DNA of 64,000 nucleotides, filler included, from Catajapyx aquilonaris (taxonomy: Eukaryota), in NCBI GenBank assembly GCA_000934665.2. It is 3 parts of 3 records of this genome, joined end to end, with 100 filler letters (N's around TTAATTAATTAA, not from the genome) between each part and the next. Parts side by side here need not be neighbours in the genome. Positions count along the whole stretch, not along the records: positions 1 to 21,333 come from JYFJ02006081.1; 2 more parts are not named here. The stretch is one strand, 5' to 3'. Positions within the stretch are counted from its first letter, which is position 1, and every line of letters starts with the position of its first letter. Below are positions 4,132 through 21,333 of this stretch, piece by piece. Under the pieces are notes generated by a model. That model was not told the DNA's origin, did not search any database, and saw nothing but the letters and a program-made list of their open reading frames with translations. The translations under genes and the position numbers were made by a program.

Positions 4132-4302
4132 ATGGCCATCGGCGTGGCCAAGATGGTGGGGCTGCTAGGCCTAGGCCCCTTGGTCCTCCTCTTCTGGGTC
4201 TTCCAGGCCGAAGTGGCGGGGGCTTCATCCAGTCGTCTTGGTGGAAGCGATGCTGATGGACCCTACTTCAAGAACTACCACGTCGTGTCCACCACTGTCC
4301 AG
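4132..4302 (+). CDS. ADAM10/17-like pseudoprotease-lectin gene, exon 1a (signal peptide and start of prodomain)
   Basis: MAIGVAKMVGLLGLGPLVLLFWVFQAEVAG is a hydrophobic signal. YFKNYHVV resembles the ADAM10 prodomain start (YIRHYE). Donor CAG|GTGAGG, phase 0. Confidence 0.85.
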
Positions 4303-4712
4303 GTGAGGCTGCTCAGAGGGGGATGTGGTTTCATTCGGGGGGAGTTTCATGCTCCCCTCTCTCTCACCCCTCCCCATTCCGCCCATCAATAAGACATTGG
4401 TGTAGGTTAACAACTGTTTGTGAATGGCCCACATTGAGATGAGAGGTCCAATGCTGGGCAGGGTGTGTGTACTACATGTGACTGTGTATAGACTAGGAAA
4501 GAGTTTAAAATATAGTGGTCCTCTTGGACTACAATAGAGAGGTTTCAATACAGAAAGTGTTCCAGGAGCAATACGATTCTGGTTTAGGCGGTTTTCACAG
4601 CATTTGATTGAGAAGGCCGGGATAAAGGCCTAGAAGATAAATGAAAGTAAATCAGCCAGGGTGGGTTTTTGCAAACAGCACACTAAAGGCTGGACGGAGA
4701 TGCTGTGCGTAG

Positions 4713-5990
4713 AAACGCACGAGTTCCCCATCACCATCACCATCACCATCACCAAAACGCAATGTGCACTACCAGTAGACTTCACGCCTCATTTACTGCG
4801 TAGTTCATTTTCGCAGCAAATCGTCTCGGCCCCTATGGTGAATTATTCACTGAGAATATGAGAACGCGTGAACTTCTGAGCATCGTGAATTATTATTAGT
4901 CGGCCATATCTTTGAGAATAGTGAAGGAAATATTACTGTCGGTTATTAGGATCAATAATTATTATCAGGTTGGCAAATGGGATGCCATGCAAAAAACTAA
5001 AGGGCACTTTTATTTCTTAGGAGCGACATCTCTCATCATTATGAGCACAAAAATAGTACTTGAAGGTCATCGGATCCAAAATGGCGTCCACCACCAATTG
5101 GATCCGAGCAGACCTCCCTATTTGACATGTGTTTCCTGACGCTTCCGTCAGATGTCGTCCCTTTAGTTCGGAGGAGGAGGAGGAGGTGGAGGCCTCGTCT
5201 TCTCGTCGATCGCCATCGCTTCTTCCCTCTGTTCTTTGTGCGGAATAAGTAGACCCGTTCCAGTCTCTTCTTTGGACCAGTTCTAGTGGACTACTCTTTG
5301 ATCGTTCTTCTGCTCTGCTGGTGACTGCCGGTGTGGTGGGGGGACACTGAGGAGGAAGGAGCTGTAGTGGTGTTCGAATAAGGGACGAGGGCGACGATGG
5401 CCATCGGCGTGGCCAAGATGGTGGGGCTGCTAGGCCTAGTCCTCTTGGTCCTCTTCTGGGTCTTCCAGGCCGAAGTGGCGGGGGCGTCATCCAGTCGTCT
5501 TGGTGGAAGCGATGCTGATGGACCCTACTTCAAGAACTACCACGTCGTGTCCACCACTGTCCAGGCGAGGCTGCTCAGAGGGGGGGATGTGGTTTCATTG
5601 GGGGGATGAGTTTCATGATCCTCTCTCTCTCTCTCTCTCTCCCACTACCCTCCCGTTCCCCCATCCATAAGACAGTTATTATACCCTTGGTGGTGTAGGT
5701 TAACAACGGGTTTTTGGATGGCCTACAGTGAGATGAGAGGGCCAATGCTGGGCAGGGTGTGTGTGCTACATGTGACTGTGTGTTGTGGGAAGGTGTATTA
5801 ATGTGTGGTGGCCCTGTCACACTCCAACAGAGAGGCTTCGATACAGAAAATGCTGTAATTCTGGTTTAGGCGGGTTTCACAGCATTTGATTGAGAAGGGA
5901 TAAAGAGGCATAGGAGATAAATGATAGGGATTCAGCCAGGGTTGGTTTCTCTGCAAACAACAGACTGAAAAAGGCTGGACCAAGATGTTG
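4713..5990 (+). repeat. Tandem duplication copy B (promoter region plus first exon)
   Basis: Second copy of 3126-4704. Has the empty site CTTCTTCCCTCT for the copy A insertion. Confidence 0.95.
5397..5564 (+). CDS. Duplicate exon 1b of the same gene (GC donor)
   Basis: Near-identical signal peptide exon, one codon shorter. Donor is CAG|GCGAGG, either a non-canonical GC donor or inactivated. Confidence 0.55.
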
Positions 5991-7546
5991 GGCAACCCAA
6001 CAAGAACAAAAATTATGCTGTCTTCATATCCAGTCTATTCAGAGTCTTCAGTGTATGCAAAGTGCTTCTCAAGCCAAGCAATGTTACATGCTAATGTTAA
6101 TAATGTTCCCTCCAGGTTTCCTCTTACTGGAAATATATAGAGAGGAATAAGTAACATTGCTTGGCTTGAGAAGCACTTTGCATACTGTGAAGTCGTAGGT
6201 GCATCACAATATATGCATTAAAGTTTGGAAAGTTTCAAAACTTAAATCATTAAGATGTATATAAGTACAAGTTTTCGAGTTATAGGATTTTAAAATTTGG
6301 ACATTCGTTTTTATTTTTTTTTATTTTTAATTTTCCAAACTTTAATGCATATTGTGATGCACCTAATATATATTTTTTTTTGTGAATTAAAAAAATTTAC
6401 GGTTGTTTAAGTCGAATTTCCAGACTGTAAAAAATCCGCGCCGAACACGCGTTCCATCTAGCGGCAAGGATGGGAAACGGAAGGACTAATAAAGATGGCG
6501 GCGCCCTTAGCAACAAAACCACGTGCAATGCATGTTTTTGTATATTCGAGGCCGTTTTCGACGCAAGCGGAGCCCGCCCCGGGTGCCAAGGTACATTGGA
6601 AGGCAGGGGAGGATGAGATGGGGGTACCCGTGTGCTACTTGTGGACAACCGACTGAAACTTGTCGTTGGAGGTGAACTGAAGCCTGAGATCTTTCTGAAC
6701 ACAGACCCGACGATCTAAATATGTTTTCATGGACTTTAATGTCGCAAAACTTGCTTCACACAAATAGGTAGTAGTACATACACGTCGTATTAAATACTTC
6801 AGAGCACAGGTTGCTAGGCTGGATAGTCTTGAATTTTTTCAGCCCAAAAAATCCAAAGTGTTTTTGGCACAAATTCAAACAAACTGATCTATTCGTGGAA
6901 ATTTCGATGATCATTTCCAATCCTGCACTGATATGTGCAAAAGTGGTAAAGAAATCTCAAATGGATTTCTGATCCAATTGATTGACATGTCCAATTGTCC
7001 ATCTTGGGAAAATTATATCTAAACTGTTGCCCCAATTGATTCGTGGTCCAATACAGTTGCTTTGAAATTTGACATTTTTGCGTTAACACTATCATGTTGC
7101 TTCTTGAGTTTCAATGCGCGTGCTGAATTAGAACAGCATCAGTCAAATTCCTCTGCTGTATGAGATTTATCATGCCTGTAGCTTCATAAAACAAGTATTC
7201 TGTGGCGATAGACCATGAGCCACTTTGGCTTGTGGGATCTGTATAGTACTGTATACACAGTTCCTCCTAAAGCTTCATGCACGAATAGAGAGGAAGAACT
7301 TGTTTCCCGACCTCCTTCTCTCTCTGCACGAAATTTTGAGGGAAACTACTGTACACCAGCCCAGCAGGGATCCATCAACATCACCCCAACTATCACTTAC
7401 CGTCTACCAGGTCAGTCTTGACCATTACAAGACCGTGATCTTGACAGAAAACTAATCAGAGTCCAGTGTTTGCTTACAGACCAAGTTATTCCTTGCAGAT
7501 GTGTTGTACCCAGTGACTGACAAAGCTCTCTACATCTCCATTTCAG

Positions 7547-8124
7547 GGCCCTCGGAAACGGCGTGATGTTGTCCAAGACGGTCCTGCCAGCGCATCCAGT
7601 GATAAACCGGACAAACCTGATGATTACTATTTCTCCCTGCACATAGACCTCCCACTGTCACTGGACCTTACTCTTTATATCCGGCGCCAAAAAGATCTCA
7701 ATCTGACGCGGGTTGGTGGCTGGAAATCTTTTGAAATACCTGGCAATGTCCATGGTACCCTTGTGCATGGATACATCGAGCAGGATCGATCCAACTCCTC
7801 GGTGACAGGATACATCCTTTATGGCAGATTCTACGGAGAGATCCTCACTCACGGTCGGATATACATGGTTGAAGAACTCAAGTTACACTCTGGTACTATT
7901 AGCAACAGTATCGGGAACCCATTCCCTGTCTTGTACAACTGGAGGAGCGTAGTGTTTGAGCTTGGTGACTTTGTGAGCGTCCATGAAGAGGGCACAGGGA
8001 TGAGACGGAGAGGAAGGAACCTGCTGTGGCGCCCAGTGGAACGCTACGGACATTATGGAAACCCCTACCAGGCCAAAGATCCCCACCATATGTTCAATAA
8101 TTTCAGATTTTTCGACCCCGACAG
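7547..8124 (+). CDS. ADAM-like gene exon 2 (prodomain)
   Basis: TTTCAG| acceptor, phase 0. GPRKRR furin-like site. HGYIEQDRSNSSVTGYILYGRFYGEILTHGRIYMVE matches the ADAM10/17 prodomain pattern. Donor AG|GTAAGG, phase 2. Confidence 0.85.
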
Positions 8125-8586
8125 GTAAGGCTTGACAACTCTTGTGTTCTCAATTGACCTATGCAAGGAATTTTATAATTATTCAGACTAACTGTTAGAA
8201 CAAACTACAGAGTCCCAGAGGATTGCTTTACACATGGGAGTTTGTTGATCTCCGAAGCCTTGTTTCTGAGGCTTCAAACAACTGCATAAAATATCCTGGA
8301 AAGTATGTCTCTCAGCACAATTGTACAAAATGAATGAGTTATCATTCAGCTATAATTTAAACTGCAATTTCAGTAGGAGTAGCAATGAAAGTGTCGCAAC
8401 TTAGAAGATATTGTAATGCAGTTTTAATGCCAATTGTATCATCTGCAATGACATTGAGACCAAATGGCAAGTGATCTTTTGGTGTAACTGCCAGGAATTG
8501 ACTGATAAATTTGTCTGAATAATGGTGAAATACCCTGCATACCATGTGACCTTGGGATAATATTACTTGAGGATCTGTTGTTTTAG

Positions 8587-20492: not shown

Positions 20493-20657
20493 AGAGCAAG
20501 CCATGTCCTGACGATTGGGAATACTACGGACATCGCTGCTATTACTTTTCCAAAGAAAAACGAACCTGGTACGATGCTCGATGGACCTGCCAAGATCTAA
20601 ATCCTGGAGCTGAATTGGCCAGTTTCCAGTATGAGACAGAAACTAACGTACTGACAA
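20493..20657 (+). CDS. C-type lectin domain 1, N-terminal exon (exon 9 of the chimera)
   Basis: PCPDDWEYYGHRCYYFSKEKRTWYDARWTCQ....AELASF. Acceptor AACAG| in phase 1 is compatible with exon 8. Donor A|GTAAGT. Confidence 0.9.
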
Positions 20658-20898
20658 GTAAGTCAATAATTTTCAAATATATTAAAACTTGAACTGACAT
20701 ACGTAGTCACAAAGGTTTATTACATTATCCTGTATGGAATATAATTTGGTCCAATATTTATTCTGATGTACTCTCATTGATGTGTCAGAAAACTGTCTTT
20801 GTCTATCAGAGAAAATTCTATATTACAGTACTTTAATTTCTGAACGAGGGTTTCCGGTGTTCAATACATTCTGTTGAATTTCATATTTCAATTTTCAG

Positions 20899-21135
20899 AG
20901 CATTTGTATGAAGATATGTGGATAGGACTCAAATACCTGGGGAAGCCAGGTGAATTGGAATGGAGTGATGGTACTCAAGTTGAAGATAGGTATCTCACTT
21001 GGGAGGGTAATAAGGCACCCGACTCTAATGAAAAGGCGTGCGTAGAACTAAAGAAAACTGGCGAAACAGGGATATTGAAGGACAAGAACTGCAACACGAA
21101 TTTTAACTTTGCCTGTGAATTAACAAACTCGAGAG
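20899..21135 (+). CDS. C-type lectin domain 1, C-terminal exon (exon 10)
   Basis: MWIGL...EWSDGT...W....PD...ACV...KDKNCN...FACE. Phase 1 to phase 1. Confidence 0.92.
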
Positions 21136-21207
21136 GTAAATATTGGTGTAAATGATGATATTTTCAGGTCAGTTGAAATGTTTTACATGGATTGGTTCCA
21201 TTTTTAG

Positions 21208-21333
21208 GAGCATGTCCAACTCACTGGAAGAGCAGGAGAGGAAGTTGCTACTACTTTCCGACTTTCCAGGCCAAGTGGACAGATGCTAGGAATTATTGCG
21301 TGCAAAATAAAAGTGCCGATTTGGTCAGCTTCG
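21208..21333 (+). CDS. C-type lectin domain 2, N-terminal exon (exon 11, cut by the gap)
   Basis: ACPTHWKSRRGSCYYF...KWTDARNYC....ADLVSF after a 72-bp intron, phase 1. Confidence 0.9.

Follow-up and report, generated by a model that had tools for sequence, protein, structure and literature searches.

The window analysed here is a stretch of 64,000 nucleotides (nt), filler included, from the genome of Catajapyx aquilonaris (assembly GCA_000934665.2), of which positions 1 to 21,333 come from record JYFJ02006081.1. On its plus strand, eleven exons (numbered as in Table 1) form a continuous open chain in which a region resembling ADAM17, a large exon rich in cysteine and proline, and exons for C-type lectin-like domains (CTLDs) follow one another. 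The initial annotation joined them into one chimeric secreted protein. The signals in the DNA favour, with slightly better than even confidence, two neighbouring plus-strand genes instead of one chimera. Gene A, extending from 4132 to about 16500, would encode a secreted, catalytically dead paralogue of ADAM17 (also known as TACE). Gene B would possess its own TATA/initiator promoter (20291/20323) and a small signal-peptide exon, and would code for a secreted protein in which two or more CTLDs stand in tandem, its sequence being cut off by the end of the contig. A single secreted polypeptide combining the dead ADAM17 paralogue, an orphan Cys/Pro module and at least two CTLDs is considered unlikely.

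The evidence for the two-gene reading lies immediately upstream of the lectin exons. There, a TATAAAA element (20291–20297) is followed by a CAGT, whose A at 20323 is situated 32 nt past the first T of the TATA element. A leader of 33 nt devoid of ATG precedes the ATG at 20356, which opens MLLLCILLSAVVCT, a hydrophobic leader of 14 residues. The donor after 20398 (CAG/GTATTG) is in phase 1 and pairs with U1 at six contiguous positions; after an intron of 94 nt comes the acceptor at 20493, which requires phase 1, i.e., the same phase as in the proposed chimeric join. As far as such signals can tell, 20291–20493 is laid out as one would expect where a gene for a secreted lectin begins with its first exon. 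Hence, the combination of TATA, CAGT, ATG, hydrophobic leader and phase-matched donor suggests that the lectin exons carry a candidate promoter and signal-peptide exon of their own. The initial annotation had named a separate lectin gene with a first exon of its own as an observation that would refute the chimera; at the level of sequence signals, such an exon is present, and the single chimeric polypeptide is not supported as stated.

The rarity of such an arrangement was estimated with a filter that called for three features: an ATG; a window of 10 residues, of which eight or more are hydrophobic and none is polar or charged; and, after it, a donor that matches U1 at six or more of nine positions. 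Four exons passed it in 128 kb (both strands), and the one at 20356 alone had a TATAAA 30–110 nt upstream. The corresponding rate is approximately 0.005 per 150 nt before the requirements for phase (one in three) and TATA are imposed, and the joint chance of encountering a leader exon within 150 nt, in the right phase and with a TATA element at the right distance, is small. The introns speak for two genes as well: those of the lectin part measure only 94, 241 and 72 nt and are rich in AT (GC 0.29–0.35), whereas those of gene A are longer (288–3244 nt; GC 0.36–0.46), the proposed joining intron spanning 4024 nt.

The nature of the lectin exons is well defined. Database searches with the ADAM-like and lectin parts were conducted exon by exon, on contiguous stretches. 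Exon 10 scores 45.6–47.1 bits with Pfam Lectin_C (PF00059), the cut-off being 22.6 bits (E = 1.3e-11 at 45.6 bits), and its database search returned only a mannose receptor of gar (E = 3.6e-5, 31% identity). When spliced, exons 9–11 together with the leader exon are colinear with tandem mannose-receptor CTLDs (P0002) across both junctions, with an E of 2e-14 computed against this single protein; exons 9 and 11 are 41% identical to each other. By its profile score and full layout, the product predicted from exons 9 and 10 is a C-type lectin-like domain. In agreement with the initial annotation, which counted at least two such domains, Pfam and the alignment reveal one whole CTLD and, after about 8 residues, the first 41 residues of a second. 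The second half of the latter is found nowhere in the window, and tblastn of all exons against the window detected no further lectin exon past the gap. The Ca2+-dependent sugar site of lectins of this type is marked by the motifs EPN or QPD, plus WND. At the usual positions of these motifs, domain 1 reads, by eye, KAP and LKD, respectively, so its classical Ca-dependent sugar binding appears doubtful.

The exon model itself was rebuilt from the sequence and confirmed: 11 exons totalling 3232 nt and 1077 stop-free codons, with GT-AG boundaries in all ten introns, pyrimidine-rich acceptors, and phases of 0, 2, 0, 1, 1, 1, 2, 1, 1 and 1 after exons 1–10, which agree exactly with the initial annotation. 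Weaker splice sites at 11710 (start of exon 5) and 12306 (end of exon 6) would give 1053 codons; the better ones, at 11674 and 12342, were preferred. The hexamer GTAAGT occurs 27 times in 128 kb (both strands), i.e., at a window-wide rate of 2.1e-4 per nt; on the plus strand between 3000 and 21400, four of its six occurrences coincide with modelled exon ends. The exon chain is well beyond chance. The GC content of third codon positions (GC3) amounts to 0.50–0.59 in the exons of gene A (0.74 in exon 1) and to 0.43–0.54 in the lectin exons.

The model terminates at one of two identical 100-nt linkers (44 N, TTAATTAATTAA, 44 N), situated at 21334–21433 and 42749–42848. The linker at 21334 marks the end of a contig, so the sequence beyond it need not adjoin in the genome; with two linkers, the window represents a chain of at least three contigs, the order and adjacency of which are not assured. 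The gap noted earlier after exon 11 hence corresponds to a contig linker.

Table 1. Exons of the two putative genes and the candidate promoter region between them
Feature	Position	Strand	Basis
Exon 1, ADAM-like gene	4132–4302	+	ATG, hydrophobic signal-peptide-like N-terminus (by eye), donor CAG/GTGAGG, phase 0
Exon 2, prodomain-like, 192 residues	7547–8124	+	Open frame, splice sites
Exon 3, start of metalloprotease-like domain	8587–8791	+	phmmer against PDB
Exon 4, middle of metalloprotease-like domain	9446–9614	+	Open frame, good acceptor, GTGAGT donor
Exon 5, expected place of zinc motif	11674–11892	+	Translation
Exon 6, end of metalloprotease-like domain	12181–12342	+	Donor ATG/GTAAGT
Exon 7, disintegrin stub, EECDCG	13095–13209	+	37 whole codons, donor CAT/GTAAGT, phase 2
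Exon 8, Cys/Pro-rich, 361 residues	15384–16468	+	Donor AGA/GTAAGT
Candidate promoter and leader exon	20291–20398	+	Sequence signals
Exon 9, first half of lectin domain 1	20493–20657	+	Entered in phase 1; alignment with mannose-receptor CTLD
Exon 10, second half of lectin domain 1	20899–21135	+	Pfam Lectin_C
Exon 11, first 41 residues of lectin domain 2	21208–21333	+	Stopped by contig end

The head of gene A (exons 1–7) is best read as an ADAM17-like pseudoprotease, a predicted identity that enjoys moderate support. In the phmmer search of PDB with exon 3 (68 residues), all 18 of the 18 listed matches were ADAM17/TACE (best E = 0.016), the exon aligning with the first ca. 47 residues of the ADAM17 catalytic domain. 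Exons 2, 4, 5, 6 and 7 gave chance-level PDB matches or none, with no ADAM among them; exon 4 alone had no database match, exon 5 alone nothing relevant, and exon 6 alone no PDB match. No Pfam match of the Reprolysin type was obtained in the exon-by-exon scans, and exon 7 covered merely profile positions 1–27 of 75 in the Pfam Disintegrin model, with an E of 0.3, i.e., below the cut-off. For exon 2, the Atlas feature search returned arthropod clusters with a score of 0.94, including one with Pep_M12B_propep on 50% of its members, which is taken as a lead only; the single-sequence AlphaFold2 model of this exon was unusable (mean predicted local distance difference test score, pLDDT, 41.4).

The features required for catalysis are missing from this head. 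Exon 2, which displays RKRR close to its start, contains no cysteine and, hence, no cysteine switch. The ADAM-only reading of exons 1–8 (911 residues) contains no HExxH. The full zinc motif HExxHxxGxxH is likewise absent: its place, presumably in exon 5 as judged from an assumed colinearity with ADAM17, reads ITRMAYYMARAMGAKDD, without His or Glu ligands. This colinearity, which may extend across the whole head (dead active-site region, Met-turn region and the CGN...EECD junction), serves as a lead only. The ADAM10/17 pseudoprotease initially proposed is supported by the loss of HExxH and by the ADAM17 matches of exon 3, the family identity being weakly shown (one exon, E = 0.016).

The missing parts are not confined to the active site. 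The disintegrin halts soon after EECDCG, as had been described, with exon 7 providing 37 whole codons. Pfam detects neither a full disintegrin nor a Cys-rich or membrane-proximal domain in exons 7–8, and exons 1–8 hold no transmembrane segment and no cytoplasmic tail; the spacer at 16500–20300 offers no convincing anchor exon either. Viewed as a member of the ADAM10/17 group (MEROPS M12B), gene A is deficient in the catalytic site, the disintegrin, the Cys-rich domain and the anchor alike.

The place of these domains is occupied by exon 8, with 52 Cys and 46 Pro in its 361 residues. The spacing is mostly C-x6-C, and the exon features three CxxC[GN]xPGxxxC motifs and a 51-residue Cys-free linker of P/A/Q; the end of this tail is not hydrophobic. 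Within this linker, at 16197–16247, an 18-nt tandem repeat is present in 2.8 copies, which suggests recent slippage. At the join of exons 7 and 8, the donor at 13209 is perfect, the acceptor at 15384 is good and the phase (2) matches, bearing out the earlier description of an unrelated Cys/Pro exon, for which no relatives were detected. Exon 8 yielded no Pfam match at E up to 10 (ADAM17_MPD and ADAM10_Cys-rich included) and no relative in a word-indexed protein search or, as a usable match, in Atlas. A HMMER scan of 1.84 billion representatives returned P0001 as the sole match, a 1682-residue tandem-repeat artefact matching in 30 short stretches, which was discarded; a metagenome scan matched 31 pattern stretches, none of which was confirmed as a relative. 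No second Cys-rich open frame similar to exon 8 was found in the window by tblastn, and the single-sequence AlphaFold2 model was unusable (mean pLDDT 33.2). Should the donor of exon 8 remain unused, the frame continues to the in-frame stop at 16498–16500, which the initial annotation had also recorded, and the protein would end in ...CCDKSKSFIYSCTP.

Several other candidates around exon 8 were dismissed. A separate start for this exon (TATAAA at 15291, in-frame ATG at 15349, MILILLTYHS...) is weak and was judged a chance occurrence, since its hydrophobic run is very short, a suitably spaced CAGT is missing and the stretch includes the good acceptor at 15384. On the minus strand at 19954–20130, a 19-residue resemblance to ADAM10_Cys-rich (E = 0.014; 16.5 bits, cut-off 28) is probably due to chance. 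A likeness of the open frames at ca. 19800–20200 to a Mariner-like element found no support in Pfam.

Rearrangements and repeats have also left traces at the locus. The promoter region and exon 1 of gene A are tandemly duplicated on the plus strand within 3123–5987 (copy A, ca. 3123–4702; copy B, ca. 4710–5987): self-blastn pairs 3123–3619 with 4710–5230 at 88.8% and 3954–4702 with 5219–5987 at 86.2%. The second copy of exon 1 (5397–5564) retains 93% peptide identity; it is one codon shorter and has a GC donor, not GT. A repeat of ca. 180 nt at 23910–24089 recurs at 9061–9242, 19039–19215 and 63679–63852 with 81–85% identity. It is a tRNA-derived short interspersed nuclear element (SINE), as the copy at 23916–23987 scores as an Rfam tRNA (33 bits). 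Introns of the ADAM-like gene harbor copies of this SINE, and so does the spacer that precedes the lectin gene.

A number of observations weigh against two genes as delineated above. Exon 8 ends on GTAAGT, a hexamer that its 1188-nt open frame contains just once, 30 nt before the stop; at 2.1e-4 per nt, its occurrence in the last 45 nt has a chance of about 1%. A perfect donor in this position makes exon 8 look like an internal exon splicing onward. In addition, no AATAAA or ATTAAA is encountered from 16500 until 18308, where an AATAAA is located (an ATTAAA follows at 18499). At the same time, no Pfam domain is present in the spacer at 16500–20300, and none of its 17 phase-1 candidates is a convincing downstream exon, several of them lying in repeats or low-complexity DNA. 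The join of exons 8 and 9 is in frame, and the GC3 differences between gene A and the lectin exons are small. As for the leader exon, its filter was set post hoc, the first version with another donor rule having missed 20356 and returned nine others. The pairing of TATA with CAGT is not rare (4 observed, 2.5 expected), the 14-residue leader peptide is short and lacks a basic residue, and the donor is without G at +5. The ADAM homology comes from one of eight exon-wise PDB searches (exon 3 alone), and exon 2, which has no Pfam or PDB match, offers no homologue.

These points lend weight to the true chimera, in which transcripts from the ADAM promoter would splice 16468/20493 and skip the leader exon, with the internal promoter possibly giving a lectin-only form as well; such splicing is deemed a minority prospect. 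The product would contain a signal peptide, a prodomain, the dead ADAM17-like domain, the disintegrin stub, the Cys/Pro module and at least two lectin domains, and would act, if this somewhat doubtful gene structure exists, as a secreted or anchored adhesion/recognition protein. The chimera would account for the 1077 open codons and the phase match over 16468/20493, for the perfect GTAAGT so close to the stop of exon 8, for the want of a poly(A) signal within 1.8 kb after 16500, and for the absence of any other credible downstream exon in the 3.9-kb spacer. Against it stands the presence of promoter-like signals and of a phase-matched signal-peptide exon 94 nt upstream of 20493. The phase match carries a one-in-three chance, and the leader exon accounts for it anyway; furthermore, no protein joining these parts emerged from the homologue searches, which were weak.

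The donor at 16468 looks functional, which would also suit a gene A continuing elsewhere, either into a small terminal exon within 16500–20290, for which the AATAAA at 18308 or the ATTAAA at 18499 could serve, or into Cys-rich and anchor exons past 21333. The contig ends 4.9 kb past exon 8, and adjacency beyond the linker is not assured. Nevertheless, a continuation of this kind seems improbable: none of the 17 phase-1 spacer candidates, several in repeats or low-complexity DNA, resembles a coding end, and the window holds no further Cys-rich open frame like exon 8. A continuation past 21333 in particular would leave the lectin gene nested in a long intron, and the nesting of a gene in an intron on the same strand is generally uncommon. 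More improbable still is that gene A arose by duplication of a longer dead-ADAM gene and is now truncated and decaying, with the donor of exon 8 as a relic and little or no stable product. Recent rearrangement (the promoter and exon 1 present twice in tandem, one copy without a GT donor), the repeats in the spacer, including the SINE copy at 19039–19215, and the failure to find an orthologue of exon 2 or exon 8 would be in line with decay. However, eight exons remain open and seven introns retain consensus splice sites over 911 codons, which is unlikely in a gene long dead, and exon 8 has kept its cysteines in a regular pattern.

Exons, frames, splice signals, lost motifs, lectin domains and promoter-like signals can be read from the DNA, whereas the joining of exons in RNA, secretion and function are inferred. 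Under the preferred reading of two genes, the protein from gene A would start with a signal peptide, followed by a prodomain that lacks the cysteine switch, a metalloprotease-like domain devoid of zinc ligands and a disintegrin stub of 37 residues. The 361-residue Cys/Pro module would replace the remaining disintegrin together with the membrane-proximal domain, membrane span and tail. By analogy with other protease-dead ADAMs (PMC4885070), it would presumably function as a non-enzymatic binding or scaffold protein. The dead head would then provide one surface for binding, and the tail, rich in disulfides, would serve as a rigid stalk or as another such surface. Gene B, in turn, may represent a dual lectin of the immulectin type or constitute the 5' part of a larger lectin-fusion gene, and its product might be engaged in recognition, an assumption based on analogy with the dual-CTLD insect lectins described in PMC5842395 and PMC7379682.

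The remainder of the window harbors other putative genes. On the minus strand of the middle contig, the exons at 32360–32629 and 37350–37826 carry an HLH domain (1.1e-8) and a Myogenic Basic domain (2.1e-11); with an intron of ca. 4.7 kb, they make up a MyoD/nautilus-type gene. Two single open frames on the minus strand (46456–47577 and 57865–58956; 374 and 364 residues) each combine MATH and BTB, similarly to SPOP, and belong to a duplicated block (46.5–51.7 kb and 57.9–63.5 kb, 79–94% DNA identity). Another minus-strand frame, at 53162–53647, encodes several C2H2 zinc fingers (zf-H2C2_2, 3.2e-22).

The significance of the locus depends on the reading adopted. Normally, one conserved ADAM17 is present, as a sheddase bound to the membrane. 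In gene A, a presumably secreted paralogue lacks all catalytic features and bears an unmatched disulfide-rich tail as its C-terminal half, so that a protease scaffold appears to have been reused for binding. With two genes, the locus consists of a variant of the protease-dead ADAM and an ordinary lectin of a known kind, and the striking chimera is unproven. The case also holds a lesson for annotation: once a small leader exon is missed, the open frames and matching phases of neighboring genes are enough to suggest a chimera. If the chimera were true, it would constitute a datable gene fusion by read-through splicing, with a domain combination not found in the searches made. The capture of the neighboring lectin gene would then be recent, as the lectin promoter and leader exon are still intact, and the resulting protein would stand as a covalent, non-venom parallel to the metalloproteinase–lectin complexes of viper venom.

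According to PMC4885070, ADAM10 and ADAM17 normally run from the metalloprotease, disintegrin and Cys-rich domains (M-D-C) directly into the membrane span. Gene A follows ADAM17/TACE in the order of the signal peptide, prodomain, metalloprotease-type domain and start of the disintegrin. It differs in the lack of HExxHxxGxxH and of a prodomain cysteine, in a disintegrin of only 37 residues, in the absence of an ADAM17 membrane-proximal or ADAM10 Cys-rich domain as judged by Pfam, and in having no span or tail on the contig. Protease-dead ADAMs serving in adhesion or as receptors are exemplified by ADAM11/22/23 and Drosophila mind-meld. Like them, gene A seems to feature a metalloprotease fold without a zinc site and is presumed to be a binder, not a cutter. 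Unlike gene A, ADAM11/22/23 and mind-meld keep the full disintegrin, Cys-rich and EGF domains and the membrane anchor; moreover, they belong to the classical ADAM branch, whereas gene A resembles the ADAM10/17 branch.

The putative chimera would be reminiscent of the snake-venom P-IIId class (RVV-X type) in combining an M12B metalloprotease–disintegrin chain with two C-type lectin-like units. In P-IIId, the protease is active and forms a heavy chain with which lectin-like chains, themselves separate proteins, are complexed (PMC4885070), whereas here the protease is dead and the covalent single chain is putative. Neither the ADAM10/ADAM17 layout nor that of P-IIId fits gene A or the putative chimera. 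Among the papers listed in the literature searches, judged by title and the opening of the abstract, none described an ADAM or reprolysin that carries C-type lectin domains in the same chain. The closest parallel to gene B is provided by the dual-CTLD insect lectins (the IML class, immulectins) described in PMC5842395 and PMC7379682. Gene B departs from them in that its closest database relative is instead the fish mannose receptor, in the KAP and LKD of domain 1 at the places of EPN/QPD and WND (assigned by eye), and in a protein end situated beyond the contig break. What it would share with the immulectins is a candidate signal peptide placed directly before two tandem CTLDs with a very short linker between them.

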